Part shown: positions 1,476-50,667 of the stretch, one piece after another
Numbering within the stretch: the stretch's first letter is position 1
How the letters are laid out: each line of letters opens with the position of its first letter
Origin: an uncultured Synergistales bacterium
GTDB lineage: Bacteria > Synergistota > Synergistia > Synergistales > Aminobacteriaceae
Direction: 5' to 3'
Length of the DNA stretch: 64,000 nucleotides
Assembly: GCA_905233565.1 (NCBI GenBank)
Contig: CAJOCL010000010.1
Coordinates: forward strand, 18,832 to 82,831
The notes under the pieces: generated by a model
What the model saw: the letters and a program-made list of their open reading frames with translations, nothing else
The model's database searches: none
What the model was told of the DNA's origin: nothing
Program-made: the position numbers and the translations under genes

Positions 1476-2396
1476 TTGTTTCCTGTTTTAATCCTGATAT
1501 TAATATCAATATGGCGGATTTCATCGGGCGAGTGGGATATTTCATTCCCTGACGTAATCCGCTTTTTGCTGACTGAAAGCAATTCCCCAGAAGCTATCGT
1601 AATAAAATCCGTGAGGCTGCCGAGATTATTATGTTCATTATGTACGGGAGGCATTCTCAGCGTTTCGGGCGTAACTCTTCAGGCACTTTTAGCAAATCCG
1701 CTTGCTGAACCTTACACTCTCGGCATTGCTTCAGGTGCTGCGTTCGGTGCTGCAATAGGAATCATGACGGGGGCTTTTATGATAATGCCCTGCGCGTTTA
1801 TAGGGGCTTTATGCGCGTTAATTCTTACGGGGATAATTTCATATCACGGCGGTAACGGGAAAATAATTCTTGCAGGAGTAATTTCAAACGCAATACTTTC
1901 ATCGGGCGTAACTTTCCTGAAGGCTGTTGCGGGTGATAAATTAGGAGCTGTTGTTCTATGGCTTATGGGTAGTTTTTCAGGCTCAGGAATTAATGACGTT
2001 TGGGCAGTTCTCGCAGGTTCAATAATTGTTATAGTCCCGGCGTATTTAATGGGCAATAATCTCGATGTCATGTCGCTTGGAAAGAACAGGGCTTCAGTTT
2101 TAGGAGTGAATGAAAATCTTGTGCGTTTTATTTTGCTTCTGACTACTTCAATGGGCGTTGCTCTCTGCGTCAGTTCATTCGGTGTAATAGGTTTTGTAGG
2201 GCTTGTCGTCCCTCATATTTCGAGAGGGCTTTCAGGGGCTTCACACAGAAGGTTAATACTTCATTCGTTCGTAACAGGTGCAGTTCTCATGTGTCTTGCT
2301 GACGGTATAGCCCAGAAAATCGGGGAACTTCCGGCCGGAACAATTACCGCGCTGGCCGGAGGTCCTTTTTTCTGTTACGTTCTTGCGAAAGATTAA
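1476..2396 (+). CDS. FecCD/BtuC-family ABC transporter permease (iron-chelate / haem / corrinoid type)
   Basis: 306-aa polytopic membrane protein starting 3 nt after the cbiK stop. RLPRLLCSLCTGGILSVSGVTLQALLANPLAEPYTLGIASGAAFGAA and the C-terminal LPAGTITALAGGPFFCYVL are typical of FecCD-family permeases. Confidence 0.8.
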   Translation: MFPVLILILISIWRISSGEWDISFPDVIRFLLTESNSPEAIVIKSVRLPRLLCSLCTGGILSVSGVTLQALLANPLAEPYTLGIASGAAFGAAIGIMTGAFMIMPCAFIGALCALILTGIISYHGGNGKIILAGVISNAILSSGVTFLKAVAGDKLGAVVLWLMGSFSGSGINDVWAVLAGSIIVIVPAYLMGNNLDVMSLGKNRASVLGVNENLVRFILLLTTSMGVALCVSSFGVIGFVGLVVPHISRGLSGASHRRLILHSFVTGAVLMCLADGIAQKIGELPAGTITALAGGPFFCYVLAKD

Positions 2397-2881
2397 TTAT
2401 TTTCGTTTCGTGAAATGAGATTGCGTTTTTCAAGTATTTTTATCAGCGGAATGCCGACAATGTAACATGCTCCGGCCTCACCAAGTCCGACATAAAGGCA
2501 TGTTGCCAATAAGGGAACATCAATCAGGTAGTGCAGCATTGCGCCGATTATCACGGCATTTGAAAGCACCGGCCAGAATGCAGCAATATATATATTCGAT
2601 GATTTACGTGTCAATATAGCCGCTATCAGTGTTGCAAGACTTCCGAAGACCATATCTGTAAGCCCGAATCCCCCGAAAAAGTTCGAGAATATACAGCCTA
2701 TGAAAAGTCCGGGTATTGCTTCAGGCATGTAAAACGGCAGCAAAGTCAAGGCTTCTGATACTCTGAACTGAACGGGCCCGTATGATATGGGCGCGAGTGA
2801 AACCGTCAAAACTGTATAAACTGCCGCGATTAAAGCCCCTATTGCGGTTTTTTTTGCTTTTTTGTCAATATTAAAATTCAT
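2393..2881 (-). CDS. queT: QueT-family queuosine-precursor transporter (ECF S-component-like membrane protein)
   Basis: 162-aa membrane protein. AIGALIAAVYTVLTVSLAPISYGPVQFRVSEALTLLPF and DMVFGSLATLIAA fit the QueT family signature. Confidence 0.7.
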   Translation of the reverse strand: MNFNIDKKAKKTAIGALIAAVYTVLTVSLAPISYGPVQFRVSEALTLLPFYMPEAIPGLFIGCIFSNFFGGFGLTDMVFGSLATLIAAILTRKSSNIYIAAFWPVLSNAVIIGAMLHYLIDVPLLATCLYVGLGEAGACYIVGIPLIKILEKRNLISRNENN

Positions 2882-2887
2882 TCTTGT

Positions 2888-4651
2888 TCATTCATTCCTT
2901 ACTGTAATTTTTATATATTTATTTTTCGTGTTTCTGATTAACATTTCAGGCTCAATTAACTTTCTTACTGTTTCGATTGAGTCAGTATTAACATAAATCG
3001 GCAGTTTATCATCTCCCGGATCCATTACAAAAATGCCTGCATTCATGAAAGTATCGAGCATATTTTCACGCGTTTTTTTGCTGCTGAATAAAATTTCAAT
3101 AATATAACCATAAGGAGGAAGCATAAATTCATATCTGTTTTTTAATTCGTCAGGTATAAATCTGCTCCAGCCTTGCGAAAGAAATTCGGCGATTTTCATT
3201 CCTGTTTTTCTTGACTGTATTAAAACTTTTCTTTCCGGGTTATTCTCTCTTCCTCGCCAGTATGATTCCATGAGCATATTGAAAACGTTGAATCTTGTTC
3301 CGTAATCCTGACTCCATAACTCAGCATCGAGATCAAGCCATGAAATTAAATTTACGTCAATTTTTCCGCAAAGTTCAAGCCCTCTTTGTGTCGACAAAAT
3401 TAAACCGTGAACGCTTGAACTTTTAACGCCTTCAGAATAAATATGAACGTCATTGTAATATTTCCCCGTTATTTTTGCGAGTGCATCAAGTCCAGGCCGT
3501 CTTCCCGTCAGAAAATCACAGCCGCATTTACTGCACTTTTCTGGAAGTCTGCAGATAAAGCCGCATTTACGGCATCGCAAAATATTGCCGTCATTTCTTG
3601 CCTGCATAATTCCGCCGCATTTTTGGCAGGTGATAATATTTCCGCATTTTTCACAGAAAATTTCTGACGCTTCGCCCTTCCTGTTGAGTATCCATATTAC
3701 ATTATGCCCTTTTGATAATTCCCTGTAAGTGTTTTTTATGAGCGAGTATGTAAGGGGAATATTTCCTTTTACGCCGTTAATCTCTTCTTTTTTCGTGCGC
3801 GAGTGATATATATCTGACAGGATAATATATTTTCGTTCGGGAATAATTATCTCTTTGGGATTTTTGCGCATATAAGTTTTAAGGGACGGCATTCTGCCGG
3901 CAGTTATAAATTCTGCATTGATAAATGATGCTCTGTGTCCTGCGAGGCTTCGGGCTGAAAGATTCAGGTTATAGGGCAGAATATAAGCCGGGTTTGCCTC
4001 ATCGTCAACAATAATTTTTTCAGGCATTAACGGTGCTGATATTCCGCCGGGAGGGGCGATAACTATACGGAATTTCTTTTCATGAATTAATTTCCATGAC
4101 TGCCATAATTTTTTGCTGTTGTCTGACGGCCATAACAACGCCTCAGATTTTAATTTATCAGGCAGATTCTTGAAAAATGATTTTGCCGTTTCCTTCTGAG
4201 GGAATAATATTAAAGTTCGTCCGGGCTTCTCAAGTTCTGAGATGAAAAATTTAACCCGTTCGCTGTCTAAAGGATGAAAGAAATTTTTTTCGTTAAATTT
4301 CCCGTTCACGCTGACGCTTATTTCAGGAGAATTAATAATCTTACCCATATAGAACGGGCGCGGTATAAAAGCCTTCAAAGCCTCAGCAGTTCCGCACATG
4401 CAGACTTTAGCGGCCCACAGGGACATATTCCAAATATCAGGGTCAATTAAACACTCATTGTCAATTATCCCCTCAACAGGCTTAATAATTATGTCCGATG
4501 ACAATTTTTTTTCTGAACGGCCTATAACAAAGCCTGTGTGCAGACTTCCTACAACTTCAACTATAACGCGGCTGCCCTCCTGAAGATTTATGCTGCTCTC
4601 ATAAGTCAGAGAGTTAAGCGACATTTCAGGGACTGCAACATCAATCAGCAA
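2888..4651 (-). CDS. priA: Primosomal protein N' (PriA)-like protein lacking a Walker A motif
   Basis: 587 aa. It has four CxxC pairs (CEKCGNIITCQKCGG...CRKCGFICRLPEKCSKCGC) as in the PriA Cys-rich zinc region, and a DExx-like IIVDDEANPAY. Synteny rpoZ-coaBC-priA is conserved. No GxxxxGK[ST] occurs anywhere in the protein (see findings). Confidence 0.7.
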   Translation of the reverse strand: MLIDVAVPEMSLNSLTYESSINLQEGSRVIVEVVGSLHTGFVIGRSEKKLSSDIIIKPVEGIIDNECLIDPDIWNMSLWAAKVCMCGTAEALKAFIPRPFYMGKIINSPEISVSVNGKFNEKNFFHPLDSERVKFFISELEKPGRTLILFPQKETAKSFFKNLPDKLKSEALLWPSDNSKKLWQSWKLIHEKKFRIVIAPPGGISAPLMPEKIIVDDEANPAYILPYNLNLSARSLAGHRASFINAEFITAGRMPSLKTYMRKNPKEIIIPERKYIILSDIYHSRTKKEEINGVKGNIPLTYSLIKNTYRELSKGHNVIWILNRKGEASEIFCEKCGNIITCQKCGGIMQARNDGNILRCRKCGFICRLPEKCSKCGCDFLTGRRPGLDALAKITGKYYNDVHIYSEGVKSSSVHGLILSTQRGLELCGKIDVNLISWLDLDAELWSQDYGTRFNVFNMLMESYWRGRENNPERKVLIQSRKTGMKIAEFLSQGWSRFIPDELKNRYEFMLPPYGYIIEILFSSKKTRENMLDTFMNAGIFVMDPGDDKLPIYVNTDSIETVRKLIEPEMLIRNTKNKYIKITVRNE

Positions 4652-44575: not shown

Positions 44576-45070
44576 TCATCTGGATCTCTGTCTAGTCTCT
44601 GAAATTCTAATCCTCCCTTCAGTCGTAGCAATAATAACATCGCATTCACCATCAGCCCCTATTACAGTTATTGTGCCTCCGGCATTAAAACGCTTATTAC
44701 GAGCATTATATGTACCTTTTTTATTTGCAAGTTTATTTTCATATGAACACCCTACTGTGGGTTCTAATTTCGATTTCGGGTATTTATCTCCCCAGCTTAT
44801 AGTTACAACAACTTGACCTGTTTCAACAATGGGACCTACTTCAATATCAAAATTCATATGTCTGCGGTCTGCAGCATCCTTCATACTACTAAGGAACATT
44901 TGGAGACGCTCAGCCTCACGCTTAGCGGTCTGCTTTGCTATTTCAGGGCTGAAAGTCATAACTGAGGCCATAATTCCAAGAATGAGAATTACTACAGCCA
45001 TTTCAACAATTGTAAAACCTTTGCGCTTTTCCACTGAAAAAAGATTATTATTTTCCATGTCCCACGACAC
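44576..45070 (-). CDS. Type IV pilin / pseudopilin with prepilin cleavage-methylation motif (GspH/FimT-like)
   Basis: KRKG|FTIVEMAVVILILGIMASV is the class III signal (G-F-T-x-x-E, Glu at +5) followed by the hydrophobic helix. The protein is at most 164 aa; the internal ATG 45058 is also possible. Confidence 0.8.
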   Translation of the reverse strand: MSWDMENNNLFSVEKRKGFTIVEMAVVILILGIMASVMTFSPEIAKQTAKREAERLQMFLSSMKDAADRRHMNFDIEVGPIVETGQVVVTISWGDKYPKSKLEPTVGCSYENKLANKKGTYNARNKRFNAGGTITVIGADGECDVIIATTEGRIRISETRQRSR

Positions 45071-46460
45071 CTCCCTTCATGAGCAGAATATCTTTAACCC
45101 TCAAAACAAGTTTGAATACCGTTCTTTGTAACTGATCCTTCTGGGATACAGGCAACATAACGCTGTCAAAAAGTCCGCTTTCTTTCAGGCCTTCCGTCAT
45201 TTTTATGATTGCCCCGTCGTCCAGTGATTTCCCGTCAACAACTACATTAACACCGCCTAAAGGACCGATGACAAAATCAGCGTTGTCGAATTTTACTCCT
45301 TCCGGCTGATTTACTTCAAGAGCGTTCATTATTTCAAGGACGGGTATATCACCCTTCAGAAAGTCTATAATCTTTTCTGTATGCTGTCTCTTCTGTTCAA
45401 GTTCCGCATTTTCGCGCTCAAGAGCCTGCCTGCGTATTGTCAAAGCACTTACATTCTCGCGCATATCCTCAATACTTGCGTTGAGATTCCGCATCGTCAT
45501 GAAGGCATATGATATTGTGCCTAATGATGTCATCATAAAACCGGCCAGAAGTCCCCACAAAATCAGCCTGTTAGGATTAAATGAATATCTCCGCCGTTCA
45601 AGCTCTATATACTCGGGCGGTCTTAAATCGAGTCCGTTTTCGGGAGATTCCCTCATTGCCAGGCCAAGCGATGAATAATACGGGTCTGTTATGTTTACTA
45701 TTCCCATCCCTGAGTCCGTGCTTATCTGGAAATCAAGGCCGGCGAGTACTATTTTGTTGATTTCCACGCCCCTGTACTGAGTGCTTATGAACTGTATTGT
45801 ATTCAGTATGTCCTGAAAGTTGCTGAGATTGTTTACAGTCCTGTAGAAAATTCCCCAGCCTTCCCAAGTTGCAATAATATTGTGTTTGTCGGCGAATACG
45901 CAAAGCCCGCTTTGAGCTTCCGGGATTGCCCTTATTGCAGCGAAGTTTGAAGGTTCGATTGATCCGGCAGGGATACCGGTTCTTTTCGATATGTCAAGAA
46001 TTTTATCAACGAGTGATTTTCTTGCCGTTGCAGCGAGTACTGAGACTTTATCTTTGTCGTTTGCGTCGGCAGGTGTCTTTATCACTACGGCATCAAAGAC
46101 AGTATCATTTCTTGAGGTGAAATATTCCTCAAAATTAAGATCAATGGTGCTGCGAATATCTTCAATGCTCATTCTCGGAAAACTGATCGGCCTTCTCAGC
46201 ATTGCATCGCCCGGAGGCAGGCCGATAGTTACAGGCTGCCTTATTCTGCCTGTTTTTTTAACAAGGGCTGAAAAGCCGTTTTCAAGTGCGCTGAAATCCT
46301 TAATACTTCCGTTTACTACACAGCCCTCAGGGAGTGCTGACGCTTCCTGACGCGTTACGGTTCCGTTTTCGTCAATCTCAGTGAAATATAAAAATTCATC
46401 GGTTATTGCAAGTCCTGAATAATTTTTCTGTAATATTTTTTTTCCTGCACCGAACGGCAT
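45048..46460 (-). CDS. Type IV pilus assembly protein, PilM-PilN-PilO-like fusion
   Basis: 470 aa. The N-terminal ~290 aa is PilM-like (actin-like ATPase fold: ITDEFLYFTEID, GLPPGDAMLRRPISFPRMSIEDIRSTIDLNFEEYF). Then come LDLRPPEY, a TM helix (LILWGLLAGFMMTSLGTISYAF) and a coiled coil as in PilN, followed by a ~100-aa C-terminal domain. Confidence 0.7.
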   Translation of the reverse strand: MPFGAGKKILQKNYSGLAITDEFLYFTEIDENGTVTRQEASALPEGCVVNGSIKDFSALENGFSALVKKTGRIRQPVTIGLPPGDAMLRRPISFPRMSIEDIRSTIDLNFEEYFTSRNDTVFDAVVIKTPADANDKDKVSVLAATARKSLVDKILDISKRTGIPAGSIEPSNFAAIRAIPEAQSGLCVFADKHNIIATWEGWGIFYRTVNNLSNFQDILNTIQFISTQYRGVEINKIVLAGLDFQISTDSGMGIVNITDPYYSSLGLAMRESPENGLDLRPPEYIELERRRYSFNPNRLILWGLLAGFMMTSLGTISYAFMTMRNLNASIEDMRENVSALTIRRQALERENAELEQKRQHTEKIIDFLKGDIPVLEIMNALEVNQPEGVKFDNADFVIGPLGGVNVVVDGKSLDDGAIIKMTEGLKESGLFDSVMLPVSQKDQLQRTVFKLVLRVKDILLMKGGVVGHGK

Positions 46461-47128
46461 TATTTATTATCACTCCCGTACCAGATTTCTTGAAATGAGA
46501 GAGTTTCGACTTTATGCGGTGAATCTTCCTGCCTTTTTACGAGTACTTGATACATTATATTTTGACCGTTGAATTTTTCTGGGAGTTTAGCACGTGCCCT
46601 GATGAGATAATATCTACCCGTTATGGGTCTATTGTTTGGATCTTCTCCTTCATTTGCCGATTCTCTTTCAGGGGGCATGGCCGCAAAAACTTTTTGATAT
46701 ATATTCTTGCCACTGTATTGGCCGTCTATCCATTTTTTCCTATCGAATGCTGTGTTAAATGCGTACCATAAGTTATGAACTCTAACATGATATGTTTCAC
46801 CGTATTTGTCTCTCCATTTGTCAGGTATATCATCATCGCCCCATAAATTTGTAGCCTTTGTATTCTCGTAAAAACTTCTTACTCCCGGAACAACGTCATC
46901 GGCGAATGCAGCTTCAGGGATTGTGTCACCAACTCTTATATCGCGCACTGCATCTTTGGCAATTTCGACAAGCTCATCAAGCCTCATTCTGTACTGCATA
47001 ATTTCGCGCTCTTCAGAAACGGACTCAATAGACGTAGCAGTGAAAAAAAACACCTGAGCAGTTACCATACCAGAAAAAAGCAGAAAAATCATAACATTAA
47101 GCAGTGAAACGCCTTTCTTTCGCTTCAT
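46460..47128 (-). CDS. PilX/minor-pseudopilin-like protein (N-terminal hydrophobic helix without Glu+5)
   Basis: 222 aa. MKRKKGVSLLNVMIFLLFSGMVTAQVFFF resembles the PilX/GspK-type N-terminus. ATGA overlap with the upstream nuclease gene and TAATG overlap with the downstream pilMNO-like gene. Confidence 0.5.
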   Translation of the reverse strand: MKRKKGVSLLNVMIFLLFSGMVTAQVFFFTATSIESVSEEREIMQYRMRLDELVEIAKDAVRDIRVGDTIPEAAFADDVVPGVRSFYENTKATNLWGDDDIPDKWRDKYGETYHVRVHNLWYAFNTAFDRKKWIDGQYSGKNIYQKVFAAMPPERESANEGEDPNNRPITGRYYLIRARAKLPEKFNGQNIMYQVLVKRQEDSPHKVETLSFQEIWYGSDNK

Positions 47129-47991
47129 TGTTTACCTCCCCAGTCTTTTATGCAGCTGTTCTTAAACGGACAGACCGAACATAATTTTTTGTCACGCAAA
47201 ATTTCAGGCACCCTCTTTGATAATAACACGCTGAAAGCAGAATGAAATAATTCTGGCAGTTGTGTTTTAATCATTTTTTCAACAAATGACGGCTCAAAAA
47301 TATCAGGCTTTTTTTCAATTTCATCAAGATATATTATCTCAACTGAAGGAAATATCCCTGATTTTTTCCAGATCAGCCACGAATAAATCAAACTCTGCGA
47401 CAGCGGAACAGTAATATCAGATTTCATATGTCCCTTGAACTCAAACAATCTTGCTTCGGCCTTATCAGGATTAAACATCAGTGCATCATAACAGCCTTTA
47501 ACAACAAGAGTGTTTCCGTTGCTGAAATTATAATACGCCTTTAACATTTGTTCAGGCTGAATGAAAATTTTCTGCATGTTTTTTTCAGGATTTTTCAGGA
47601 GAGACGGAATACCCATGAAAAATTCATACATTGCCCGAATCCATACAGTTATGGCTCTGTTCATCGCATCAACCTGTTCTGTCATTAATTGCTCAGAATT
47701 TGAATCCAATAACGGAATTAATATATACTTGCTTATCATAGATTCAAGTGATGACGGATAACGTAAGGAGGCCGCTATTTTTTCGTAAAGAATGCTTTCA
47801 GGGTTTGAGGCACCTTGAAAGAATACTTTAGCTATGTTCTTGTGAAATAATGAACCGTAAGCGTAACCGCTGCCCTTGATTCCGACATGCCATGCAGTTT
47901 TTGCGCCCTTGAAAATCTTATAGGCAAGAAGAGCCGGGCATTTTTGACACAAGGCAAGATCGCTCACCGAGATAGAACGAGATACGCCCAT
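47125..47991 (-). CDS. Stand-alone Cas4-like PD-(D/E)xK nuclease with 4-Cys (Fe-S) signature
   Basis: 288 aa. Motifs in order: N-terminal SVSDLALCQKCP, GSLFH, CYDALMFNPDKAEARLFEFKG (D...ExK), SQSLIYSWL (QxxxY) and C-terminal CSVCPFKNSC (CxxCx5C). Confidence 0.7.
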   Translation of the reverse strand: MGVSRSISVSDLALCQKCPALLAYKIFKGAKTAWHVGIKGSGYAYGSLFHKNIAKVFFQGASNPESILYEKIAASLRYPSSLESMISKYILIPLLDSNSEQLMTEQVDAMNRAITVWIRAMYEFFMGIPSLLKNPEKNMQKIFIQPEQMLKAYYNFSNGNTLVVKGCYDALMFNPDKAEARLFEFKGHMKSDITVPLSQSLIYSWLIWKKSGIFPSVEIIYLDEIEKKPDIFEPSFVEKMIKTQLPELFHSAFSVLLSKRVPEILRDKKLCSVCPFKNSCIKDWGGKQ

Positions 47992-47996
47992 GAATA

Positions 47997-49949
47997 TTAA
48001 TCTGCCGCCTCACTTGATAATGTTACGAGAGTATCTTTATTTTTTGAAGTAAACGTCTTGAACAGATGCGAATTATTATTGATTATTGATATTACGTCAT
48101 TCCGTACTAATTTTATCCCGCGCTGTGATAAGATGTCAGCAGCTTTATCAACCGTAACAATTTTCATCGGAGATGCCGTTATTATATTTTTCAATGTATC
48201 TTTGACTAAAGCATCATCGATAGTTTCTATTTTGCCTGTTTCTTTTTCCTCTGAATACGTTATTGATGGCGGTGAAGGCTCTATATTCTTTATTGTCTTT
48301 GTGTCTATGAGCTTGAGGGTTCGCACAAAGTCTTTTATGTCATTGCGTGTTGCCGTTCTGGGAGTTGAGGAAGTATAGAGATTTACATCTCCGTTGTCTA
48401 TACGGTTTATCAGGGCTGCAAGGGCGTACCAGCTTATGCGCGATTCTTTATCGAGCATTACTGTATGACCTCCCTGAGCCTCAAACTCGTGAAGATTCTC
48501 ATTAGCCTGCTTCCATGTCTTTTTGTGTGTTTGGTCTTCAGTAATGTAAAAACACTCACTGCCGGGATATTTTTTCATGAAAGATATTCCGCTTTTCAGG
48601 GCAGCACTCACTGTTGTATGTCCTTTAGCAGTAATTACCATAAACGCAAGTTTTTTATTGCCGTAAGCTCCTACAAGTTTTATGTACTTATAAGTTCTTT
48701 TCGAGACGCTGAAATTTTCAAATGAGCTTAGAAATACTTCCAGAGCGAGCAAGAGATAATCAGCGTTAGGAGGCCATGCAGAAGGAGCAGACTGAATCTT
48801 TATATAATCCTCGTCGTATATTTCTTGTATGCAATCTTCAGGTTTAATATCTGTCCTTACCGTTCTGTTGGCAAGTTCAATTACTATTCTTGGGGAAAGT
48901 CCGGGAACAAGAAAATCATTCATTCTTGATATAAGCCATTGATATTTTTCTTCCACACCGTCAGTAAAGGCTGCAGCGATTCTGTCATGTATAATACGGC
49001 GTGCCTGAGAGATTGAACAATTGCTGTCAAGCTTTATTGTATTATTTTGCAGACGCTGAGTTATTGAAGGATTCAGAATGTGCCGGAATATATCCCACGT
49101 TTCCCACTTTATGAAACATAATGGAAGTATACCCTCAATGTGATTCATGATAAATCCCACAGCATCCCCCCATGCTGTTATGAGTGTATTATCCCTGATT
49201 GAGTCAATCTCATCAAAACATATAATCATTGGAACGTGTGAATAAGACAAAACAATTCCAAGTGATGTAATGAAATTTTTTGCCGTGCTTTCACATTCTG
49301 CCTCTTCCATCGAATATATATCTCTCAGGGGTAAACCTAATCTTTCAGAATCTTCATCATCAAGACCCTCGCGGAGCCATTCAGTTATTTCATACTTAGT
49401 ACCCTCGTCATCAGCTTCCGAGTAAAGTATGAGACATTTTAGGAAAGTTCTGTTTATGTCAGGCATATCACGCTTTAAGTAAATTTTACGGTCTATTGAT
49501 TCGATATTGCTGAAACCGTCATTCTCTCTTTTTTCGTAATAAGAATCTATCATTCCTTGTATCACGACATCGAATTGTGAACGCCCATCACTGTGAACTT
49601 TATTCATAGACACAATAATTTCAGACCAAAGTTCCTGCATAACCTTTTTAGGATTAGTGAAGGCTCTTACCGTAACGAAAATTACTGACCACGAATTTTT
49701 TCTTATCTTCCGAAGTATTCGTGTGAGCATGTGCGTTTTTCCGGTTCCTGCTCCGCCGATCACAAGTCCTGAAATAGGCAGTGAAGGGTTACGCCTCTTT
49801 TGTCTTATGAGATGTTCAATTTCTTCTGATGCACTTCTGGCAATCTGCTCAATATCAGGAGTTGTATTCCCGAAAGGCATGGGAGAGGATGCAGAAGTAA
49901 AAGGATTATTTTCACGTAACTGATCTTGTATTAATTCACTATTTGACAT
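47997..49949 (-). CDS. AAA+ P-loop ATPase (ORC/Cdc6- or ExeA/MshM-like core) with a large uncharacterised C-terminal region
   Basis: 650 aa. An NPF...PFG N-terminal element is followed by Walker A GLVIGGAGTGKTHML and Walker B MIICFDEIDSI. A lid-like SISQARRIIHDRI follows. The last ~300 aa have no recognisable motifs apart from a possible winged-helix end. Confidence 0.65.
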   Translation of the reverse strand: MSNSELIQDQLRENNPFTSASSPMPFGNTTPDIEQIARSASEEIEHLIRQKRRNPSLPISGLVIGGAGTGKTHMLTRILRKIRKNSWSVIFVTVRAFTNPKKVMQELWSEIIVSMNKVHSDGRSQFDVVIQGMIDSYYEKRENDGFSNIESIDRKIYLKRDMPDINRTFLKCLILYSEADDEGTKYEITEWLREGLDDEDSERLGLPLRDIYSMEEAECESTAKNFITSLGIVLSYSHVPMIICFDEIDSIRDNTLITAWGDAVGFIMNHIEGILPLCFIKWETWDIFRHILNPSITQRLQNNTIKLDSNCSISQARRIIHDRIAAAFTDGVEEKYQWLISRMNDFLVPGLSPRIVIELANRTVRTDIKPEDCIQEIYDEDYIKIQSAPSAWPPNADYLLLALEVFLSSFENFSVSKRTYKYIKLVGAYGNKKLAFMVITAKGHTTVSAALKSGISFMKKYPGSECFYITEDQTHKKTWKQANENLHEFEAQGGHTVMLDKESRISWYALAALINRIDNGDVNLYTSSTPRTATRNDIKDFVRTLKLIDTKTIKNIEPSPPSITYSEEKETGKIETIDDALVKDTLKNIITASPMKIVTVDKAADILSQRGIKLVRNDVISIINNNSHLFKTFTSKNKDTLVTLSSEAAD

Positions 49950-50667
49950 TCCAGGCTACCGTTCCCATTCTGTAATTATTTTCATCAACGAAGCAGTCAT
50001 TAAGTTCATCCTGCGTCATCACAGATTCATCAGCAATATATATCCCTATAATCACTTCGTTGCGTAATTTCCTGATCATTTCGTCAAAAACTTCACGGGG
50101 CCAGCCCAGTTTTCTTCTCAGGTCGCAGATTCGGACGAAAATTCGCCCTTTGTCGAGAGAGTCAAAGGCTTCACGGAATTTTTCCCGCGTGTAATCTCCA
50201 GTATCATCTGATTTATTTTTACTGCTTTCAATCTTTACGGCCTGAATTTTATTTGCTTCAACGCTGAAAAATTTCGGCCTGATGAACTTGTCATCAACTT
50301 TAATTTTTGCTTTCCCCTCATCAACAAGATCATTAATAATTGATATGAAAACTGCCTTAGTGAATGGAAGACTGCTTATCGTTCTTGTATCGAGTGCTTT
50401 TTTCGGCGACAGCAAATTCAGGACAAGTTCCGAAGGTTCACAGGGCGTTAATATGTAAACTATTCTGCCCTTAGCACTGAACATGAAACAATCGCTCAAT
50501 GACTGTTCGAGTTTATGCCTTATGATTTTTCCCGTATCACCGCTTTTTATTCCAAGCTGTGATTTTGCGTCTTTACTCAGAGATGCCATGAGCTTTGAAA
50601 TTGTCATAAAGCCTTTATTTTTGTCGAGAATGCTTTGTATTAAGTCAGATATGCTTTTATCGGACAT
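49939..50667 (-). CDS. Hypothetical protein (possibly winged-helix repeats), first gene of the operon
   Basis: 242 aa. AAAGGAGTGA lies upstream of ATG 50667 and there is an 11-nt overlap with the ATPase gene. I recognise no motif. Segments such as GFMTISKLMASL and GRIFVRICDLRRKLGWPREVFDEMIRKL look wHTH-like (weak inference). Confidence 0.45.
   Translation of the reverse strand: MSDKSISDLIQSILDKNKGFMTISKLMASLSKDAKSQLGIKSGDTGKIIRHKLEQSLSDCFMFSAKGRIVYILTPCEPSELVLNLLSPKKALDTRTISSLPFTKAVFISIINDLVDEGKAKIKVDDKFIRPKFFSVEANKIQAVKIESSKNKSDDTGDYTREKFREAFDSLDKGRIFVRICDLRRKLGWPREVFDEMIRKLRNEVIIGIYIADESVMTQDELNDCFVDENNYRMGTVAWNVK

Follow-up and report, generated by a model that had tools for sequence, protein, structure and literature searches.

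A Cas4-like nuclease of an uncultured Synergistales bacterium as the likely effector of a predicted anti-invader cassette that has lost its motor and joined a pilus gene

The stretch under study comprises 64,000 nucleotides of an uncultured Synergistales bacterium (GenBank assembly GCA_905233565.1, contig CAJOCL010000010.1, positions 18,832 to 82,831; hereafter the window, with position 1 as its first letter). Its gene C (47125..47991, minus strand, as for all window features below) encodes a RecB-type, Cas4-like nuclease of the PDDEXK_1 group with candidate Fe-S cysteines. On balance, this protein appears to be the cutting effector of a three-gene cassette, A-B-C, which is predicted to act against invading DNA and which, in the genus of the window, has lost its motor and become joined to a pilus gene. 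A preliminary description of the locus had called the partners of the nuclease poorly characterised; this does not stand, as A-B-C matches the Orc/CDC6-coupled 'HerA/FtsK capture' counter-invader systems, a class put forward on the basis of comparative genomics (PMC10853773; Nucleic Acids Res 2024;52:1005). The class itself was thus already predicted in 2024; what is newly seen here is the loss of the pump, the insertion of the cassette at a PilX/GspK-like gene, and a nuclease and a pseudopilin in one polypeptide in most species of the genus.

The nuclease and its cassette

Gene C starts with ATG and encodes 288 residues, and its TGA stop overlaps the ATG of the following gene, of 222 codons, as ATGA, with GGGAGG just upstream. 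Pfam PDDEXK_1 (PF12705) matches the protein at 27.2 bits against a cut-off of 22, with residues 7–280 covering positions 2–246 of the 247-position profile, and relatives reach up to 58 bits. The motifs follow one another in the expected order: C15-Q-K-C18 (LCQKCP; 47938..47949), the G-x3-H element G46-S-L-F-H50 (47842..47856), the catalytic core (47434..47487) made up of D169 (47485-47487) and E184-F-K186 (47434-47442), the QxxxY motif Q199-S-L-I-Y203 (47383..47397), and the C-terminal cysteine triad C271-x2-C274-x5-C280 (47152..47181). All of them, including G46, F49 and H50, are invariant across 26 unfused homologues that are 45–64% identical; in a broader alignment reaching down to 17–32% identity, C18 and the C-terminal triad are still invariant, and D, K, Q and Y nearly so. 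C18, the cysteine of the 'CP' motif, is conserved family-wide, C15 among close relatives only; because C18 is invariant also in the 17–32% identical relatives, it is C18 rather than C15 that is the candidate for the N-terminal Fe-S ligand of the whole family. The four cysteines C18, C271, C274 and C280 are accordingly marked here as the predicted holders of a 4Fe-4S cluster.

The same genome provides a bona fide PDDEXK_1 domain for comparison, as part of a 1410-aa open frame encoding an AddA-like helicase-nuclease. In a profile alignment, the CP motif, G-x3-H, D, (D/E)-x-K, QxxxY and CX2CX5C of the two align residue for residue: GNLIH is the counterpart of GSLFH, D169 and E184-F-K186 fall on D and D-F-K, and the cysteine triad aligns both with that of the AddA-like domain and with those of true Cas4 proteins. 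The preliminary description had read the full motif set in order and had asked whether the catalytic D/E/K agree with the family consensus, and on both points it is borne out. In the AlphaFold2 model of gene C (pLDDT 84.8, pTM 0.83), D169 and E184/K186 lie on consecutive beta strands (E170-174 and E179-186), QxxxY lies on the helix after the ExK strand, and a helical insert occupies about residues 45–145. Foldseek matches this model in the PDB to ACE1 (9iab), AdnA/AdnB, AddB, the Cas4 protein SSO0001 and Dna2, with E-values from 7.5e-6 to 1e-3 and query-normalised TM scores of 0.35–0.49. A sequence-profile search of the PDB with the gene C family found no relevant solved structure, and PHROGs returned only a weak 'CRISPR/Cas associated' match. 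Motifs and model together point to a metal-dependent PD-(D/E)XK nuclease of the RecB/Cas4 fold, whose catalytic activity is predicted from these features. A stand-alone nuclease of the Cas4/AddB Fe-S type, as first proposed, agrees with the complete and conserved motif set, the cluster being a prediction from the cysteine pattern.

Gene C is the third of six minus-strand genes packed by overlaps or a 5-nt gap, namely A, B, C, the 222-aa gene, a PilM-PilN fusion and a prepilin. The AAA+ ATPase upstream and the pseudopilin-like gene downstream had both been identified correctly in the preliminary description. The cassette opens with gene A (49939..50667), which encodes 242 aa and shares 11 nt with gene B. 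It lies upstream of gene B in all cassettes examined, Methanospirillum included, at only 25–50% identity, and its members show weak, scattered matches to winged helix-turn-helix (wHTH) families (MarR, TrmB, DnaD_N, SelB-wing, AbiEi), from which the protein probably consists of three winged-helix units. Gene B (47997..49949) encodes a 650-aa Orc/Cdc6-like AAA+ ATPase with an invariant Walker A (GGAGTGKT, 49734-49757) and an equally invariant Walker B (IICFDEID, 49206-49229). Its Pfam matches are AAA_22, KAP and AAA_16, with BrxC/BrxD-type matches in a relative; in Foldseek, its model (pLDDT 86.2) finds first Cdc6 (1fnn), Orc4 and Orc1, and then STAND proteins of the NLR/CED-4 kind. In the model, the AAA+ part is followed by an alpha/beta domain (residues 395–535 or so), a candidate for an inactive restriction endonuclease (REase) domain, and then by a small helix-strand domain at 579–644; the C-terminus of gene B is winged-helix-like. 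An ExeA/MshM-type pilus ATPase was considered for gene B and rejected because its fold is Orc/Cdc6-like and because it accompanies the nuclease also where no pilus genes adjoin the cassette, in other genomes and in archaea.

The literature class has a matching architecture. It has been reported that such systems combine an Orc/CDC6 ATPase, bearing an inserted inactive REase and wHTH, with an active REase and a HerA/FtsK domain; in some of them FtsK-alpha has been captured from cellular FtsK, and a protein with two to four wHTH domains occurs in a subset (PMC10853773). It was proposed there that the systems catch invading DNA and cut it. In the favoured reading of the cassette, gene A would probably recognise DNA; the Orc/Cdc6-type gene B would probably load on or sense the target DNA and, depending on ATP, position or license gene C; gene C would then cut the DNA as a metal-dependent nuclease effector; and an FtsK or HerA double-stranded DNA pump, where present, would thread the captured foreign DNA into the nuclease.

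Spread of the cassette and loss of the motor

Within the phylum, the nuclease family is confined to the Synergistaceae, where 55 of 106 genomes and 10 of 20 sampled genera have it; the other 12 families of the phylum contain none. In the genus of the window it is present in 41 of 47 genomes, and gene B has exactly the same distribution, occurring in these 41 and missing from the other 6, which agrees with the first suggestion that the upstream ATPase is the partner of the nuclease. In eight other Synergistaceae genera, the conserved block consists of A-B-C only, without pilus genes, between unrelated housekeeping genes (gatB and purD among them), and the flanking housekeeping genes differ each time. 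A-B-C also occur together in Methanospirillum, one complete genome included, at 25–33% identity, and metagenome-assembled genomes (MAGs) of Planctomycetes carry related nuclease-FtsK genes on short contigs, on which the upstream genes lie beyond view. The cassette has spread horizontally across bacteria and archaea. The nuclease family as a whole is small and numbers 116 clusters (E <= 1e-3) in a set of 1.84 billion representatives.

Several variants of the cassette were seen in passing. One genome (G145; contigs C25 and C45, loci L069 and L070) has two cassettes, one with a nuclease-FtsK fusion of 663 aa and one with a motor-less nuclease of 296 aa. In two Synergistaceae MAGs from termite gut (L079:5630-7042 and L080:6311-7888), a homologous gene of 470–525 aa stands between the ATPase and the nuclease-FtsK gene; the two copies are 48% identical to each other and have no Pfam match, and the gene may represent either an insertion or a fourth component that is optional. 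In L079 there is, in addition, a fragment of 108 aa like the N-terminus of gene A. Homologues of gene B for which no nuclease homologue was found occur in G108 (C1:1878391-1880049) and in three g17 genomes (G095-G097), and these may be nuclease-less variants of the cassette; the ATPase of G108 is probably fused to another domain, since its open frame spans 1132 aa.

Outside the genus of the window, gene C typically encodes 640–720 aa, comprising the nuclease, FtsK_alpha and an FtsK/SpoIIIE motor (113 bits), and in a deeper branch of the family the nuclease is combined with HerA/DUF87. No HerA/FtsK motor domain was found by Pfam among the six genes of the window. In a maximum-likelihood tree of 74 nuclease domains, for which the midpoint root serves for drawing only, the genus of the window forms a clade (27 rows, support 100/100) that is nested inside successive FtsK-fused branches. 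Because of this nesting, the pump was, taking the midpoint root, lost in the clade of the genus; further motor-less versions of gene C occur at L067, L068 and L070. As the HerA/FtsK domain is absent here and present in the orthologues, the window cassette is a derivative of the capture-system class and not a full member.

The same spread could be read differently, as that of a module of a selfish element. Its three proteins, acting as Orc-like initiator, DNA-binding protein and nuclease-translocase, would then help a small integrated element to replicate, segregate or be transferred instead of protecting the host. Such a role would suit the horizontal passage between bacteria and archaea, the AT-rich cassette (GC content of 0.39–0.40, the most AT-rich part of the window, the rest of which has 0.41–0.48), the term 'mobile gene neighbourhoods' used for these systems in PMC10853773, and the fact that Orc/Cdc6 and FtsK-type proteins carry out replication and DNA transfer in many elements. 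However, no integrase, transposase, repeat boundary or tRNA target was found at the cassette, just three genes move together, no family member was matched in plasmid, phage and viral contig collections, and inheritance within the genus is stable, which makes a selfish element unlikely.

Insertion at the pilus operon and fusion to a pseudopilin

Downstream of gene C, the 222-aa gene (46460..47128) encodes a PilX/GspK-like minor pseudopilin, identified from its junction sequence, homologue clusters and synteny; no Pfam pilin match, N_methyl included, was obtained for it. Its class-III-like signal is KRKKG/VSLLNVMIFLLF... (47042-47125, the slash marking the predicted processing point), and the protein presumably resembles GspK/XcpX. 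It is followed by a 470-aa PilM-PilN fusion (45048..46460; Pfam PilM_2 and PilN) and by a canonical prepilin or pseudopilin of 164 aa (44576..45070; KRKGFTIVEM..., with N_methyl and GspH/GspG matches). In the genus, PilM, PilN and a PilO-like part form this one 470-aa polypeptide; most other sampled genera of the family have separate adjacent pilM and pilN genes of about 320 and 210 aa, and separate homologues were found in 19 of the family's 20 genera. Other pilus or secretion parts lie elsewhere in the genome, namely PilB and a PilT-PilC fusion (C7), GspD/E/F (C5), a secretin (C2) and a prepilin peptidase (C3:123733-124545), together with about a dozen prepilins. The C7 fusion (C7:35465-37831, minus strand) is a 788-aa open frame with a PilT/T2SSE-like ATPase part and two T2SSF (PilC platform) domains, adjoined by a 560-aa PilB-like ATPase; such a fusion of ATPase and platform would be unusual.

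In sister genera, the operon runs from pseudopilins through a PilX-like gene (MRRRPGVALLAVMLF...) to pilM, pilN, pilO and pilQ, and has no cassette. Three cassette-less genomes of the genus itself have the PilX-like gene, pilMN and the pilin; in two of these genomes yceG and ftsK come next, and in one cassette-less genome a divergent rsmH-like gene lies upstream of the pilus genes. The cassette-bearing loci share these flanks, since L013 has rsmH on the upstream side and L015 has yceG-ftsK on the downstream side; A-B-C was therefore inserted directly upstream of the PilX-like gene, between rsmH and the head of the pilus operon. The cassette gained its pseudopilin neighbour secondarily and in this genus only, and the ancestral system does not include it.

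Beyond adjacency, 88 of the 120 homologue clusters listed are 438–503 aa long and combine the nuclease and the pseudopilin in a single frame. At the junction, the last cysteine is followed by a basic linker of 11–28 residues. Among 87 readable junctions, 84 have G at -1, and position +5 is N or S in 84 and G or T in the rest, never E; after the G, the sequence follows [AS]-S-[LM]-[VI]-[NS]-V-[LM]-V-F-F. This pattern is one that we take to be a prepilin signal of the GspK/PilX style, as in minor pilins without E5. Gene C of the window is of the split form, would be translated together with the pseudopilin, and stands near the base of the genus clade; according to the tree of 74 nuclease domains, fused and split forms have replaced one another at least four times.

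The link to the pilus may be either accidental or functional. Because fused and split forms switch repeatedly, the favoured reading is that the link is a neutral outcome of the insertion, tolerated by virtue of the peptidase-type site at the junction or of a topology running from cytoplasm through membrane to periplasm, either of which would leave both parts able to work. A further, rather unlikely proposal is that the nuclease is stationed at the pilus base, on the cytoplasmic face of the type IV pilus machine, where it would replace the lost pump and form a 'leader' of about 280 residues on a prepilin-type pseudopilin. Prepilin peptidase would then release the nuclease at the conserved G/[AS]S site, or the nuclease would stay tethered; and the pilus base, instead of an FtsK pump, would bring it to DNA arriving by uptake or from pilus-dependent phages.

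A stronger claim on the pilus side would make the nuclease a working part of a type IV pilus or competence machine, tethered on the cytoplasmic side by the pseudopilin anchor and processing uptake DNA for natural transformation. The in-frame PilX/GspK-like fusion in 88 of 120 clusters, the pilMN and prepilin genes adjoining the nuclease in all opened genus loci (the window, L013 and L015), their adjacency by coordinates wherever nuclease and pilMN share one contig, and the presence of the remaining pilus parts elsewhere in the genome would all fit such a part. Against it, the nuclease always comes with genes A and B, other genera and archaea have it without nearby pilus genes, sister genera, like six genomes of the genus itself, have pilus operons free of the cassette, and repeated change between the fused and the split state is what a join with little function would be expected to show. 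A dedicated pilus or competence role is for these reasons quite unlikely, and the anti-invader cassette, only secondarily joined to a pilus gene, is retained as the more likely explanation.

Relation to Cas4, repair nucleases and CRISPR

In the preliminary description, gene C was placed in the Cas4 family, and this assignment fails. TIGR00372, the NCBIfam Cas4 equivalog, gives 15 bits against a cut-off of 65; PF01930, the Pfam Cas4 model, matches neither gene C nor anything else in its genome, although it detects true Cas4 in 60 of 151 Synergistota genomes; and hhalign of the gene C family with nine true Synergistota Cas4 proteins (E 0.008) is restricted to the C-terminal 72 columns, from QxxxY to CX2CX5C. 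Of the profile searches first suggested, the PDDEXK_1 part thus succeeded and the Cas4 part did not. From these profile results, gene C is outside the Cas4 family proper but Cas4-like by fold and by predicted mechanism.

The folds closest to gene C, the nuclease domains of AdnAB, AddB and Dna2, and its near-universal presence in the genus would also suit a housekeeping enzyme of repair or recombination, an end-resection nuclease like AddB, RecB or Dna2 with a helper ATPase. But the gene is missing from half of the family's genomes and from all other families of the phylum, is common to a methanogen, and belongs to a genome that already has three large helicase-nucleases of AddA/AddB type, so that a repair role is very unlikely.

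The first description had also found no CRISPR-Cas context. For the window this holds, since no tandem repeats occur in its 64 kb, which contain no tRNA genes either, and for cas genes it extends to the whole 2.02-Mb assembly (96.5% complete), in which Cas1, Cas7e and PF01930 have no match and Cas3_HD has a single sub-threshold one (17.7 bits); it does not hold for the CRISPR array itself, which lies outside the window on another contig. This array (C20:1-2053) has 34 repeats of 29 nt that are I-E-like (CTTTTCCCCACACACGTGGGGGTGATCC) and spacers of about 32 nt; it starts at the contig edge, its leader end lies off the contig and its last repeat is degenerate. As Cas1 and Cas7e have no match and Cas3_HD only a sub-threshold one, the cas operon of the array is either unassembled or absent. 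On another contig (C17, about 2000–4000), long tandem arrays with a 63-nt period, in 13 and 9 copies, are not CRISPR and probably encode a 21-residue repeat. Type I-E CRISPR is not known to use Cas4. That gene C is a true Cas4 serving the C20 array in trans, for which one could cite the 34-repeat array and the complete Cas4-type motifs, is rejected as extremely improbable, given the failure of both Cas4 models, the lack of cas1, cas7e or a significant cas3 in the assembly, the I-E-like repeat, and the synteny of gene C with A and B, which is kept irrespective of the CRISPR content of the genomes.

Weight of the evidence and comparison with known systems

Several results weigh against an anti-invader cassette. 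In a search of the literature, no experimental test of any member of the capture class was found, for which reason 'defence' is a prediction here. PADLOC gave only weak matches to Cas4, Nhi and an AbiO P-loop protein and assigned no system; the cassette lies among housekeeping genes and outside any defence island; and its near-universal presence in the genus resembles the behaviour of a core gene there. The lack of family members in plasmid, phage and IMG/VR collections speaks against recent carriage on mobile elements but adds no positive evidence. In gene B, residues of about 395–535 contain no conserved D...ExK, and a Pfam search of the C-terminal half gave no match. Finally, the window version lacks the HerA/FtsK motor after which the class is named, and the reading offers no other means of feeding DNA to the nuclease.

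With these points taken into account, the cassette is of interest in several respects. The capture class is so far a prediction, and any tractable member helps to test it. The variant in the window shows that such a system can do without the pump, as an intact, conserved nuclease and ATPase persist in several lineages that have no motor. The genus also offers a natural experiment in which a peptidase-type site marks the join of a nuclease with a pilus protein anchored in the membrane. Should this join be functional, anti-invader nucleases would be linked to a DNA entry route and the scope of prepilin leaders widened; if the nuclease is indeed stationed at the pilus base, this would be the first case of a prepilin that carries an enzyme, with a defence nuclease standing at the port of DNA entry; if the join is neutral, it would be a gene fusion tolerated thanks to a processing site at the junction. 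A further lesson is that D-ExK-QxxxY-CX2CX5C alone is insufficient for the label 'Cas4'.

Compared with the capture systems (PMC10853773), A-B-C is likewise a compact operon with horizontal spread through bacteria and archaea; it likewise pairs an ATPase of the Orc/Cdc6 clade, as judged from the fold and the invariant Walker A and B of gene B, with a nuclease, gene C, predicted to have the active-REase fold, and the orthologous cassettes of sister genera and Methanospirillum carry the described FtsK-alpha and FtsK motor. Unlike those systems, the window cassette has no HerA/FtsK and its nuclease is coupled or, in relatives, fused to a minor pseudopilin of the pilus; its nuclease is also of the Cas4/AddB Fe-S type by prediction, whereas PMC10853773 makes no mention of Cas4 or Fe-S.

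Cas4 itself (SSO0001, 4ic1; Foldseek E 4.5e-4) shares with gene C the RecB-type fold, the order D...ExK...QxxxY and the pattern of one plus three cysteines, but gene C is about 100 residues longer, with a helical insert, has no cas1/cas2 context, falls below both family thresholds, and shows profile-profile similarity in its C-terminal third only. In contrast to the solo-Cas4 proteins (PMC5704561), the gene C family is tied to FtsK/HerA motors, neither of which that survey mentions. The best structural match is ACE1, an Argonaute-associated enzyme of the Cas4 family (9iab/9iac; PMC12094033), with E 7.5e-6 and TM of about 0.46–0.49. Like ACE1, gene C would be a Cas4-fold nuclease acting as an accessory of a non-CRISPR anti-invader system; the identity is just 10–11%, however, and the nuclease is accompanied here by an Orc/Cdc6 ATPase and a wHTH protein, with no Argonaute in the cassette. 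The nuclease domains of AddB, AdnA/AdnB and Dna2 agree with gene C in fold, motif order, cysteine pattern and PDDEXK_1 model, but gene C is a stand-alone protein of 288 aa rather than the C-terminal domain of a helicase, and, unlike a repair gene, it is distributed patchily and by horizontal spread.

The literature search found no paper relevantly linking Cas4 to pseudopilins. On the pilus side, the 222-aa protein shares with the GspK/PilX pseudopilins a basic stretch, the G at -1, a hydrophobic helix and the lack of Glu at +5, and its homologue in sister genera stands just upstream of pilM, as in the operon of the window. It differs from them in that, in most species of the genus, an enzyme of about 280 residues replaces the usual leader of a few to a few tens of residues.

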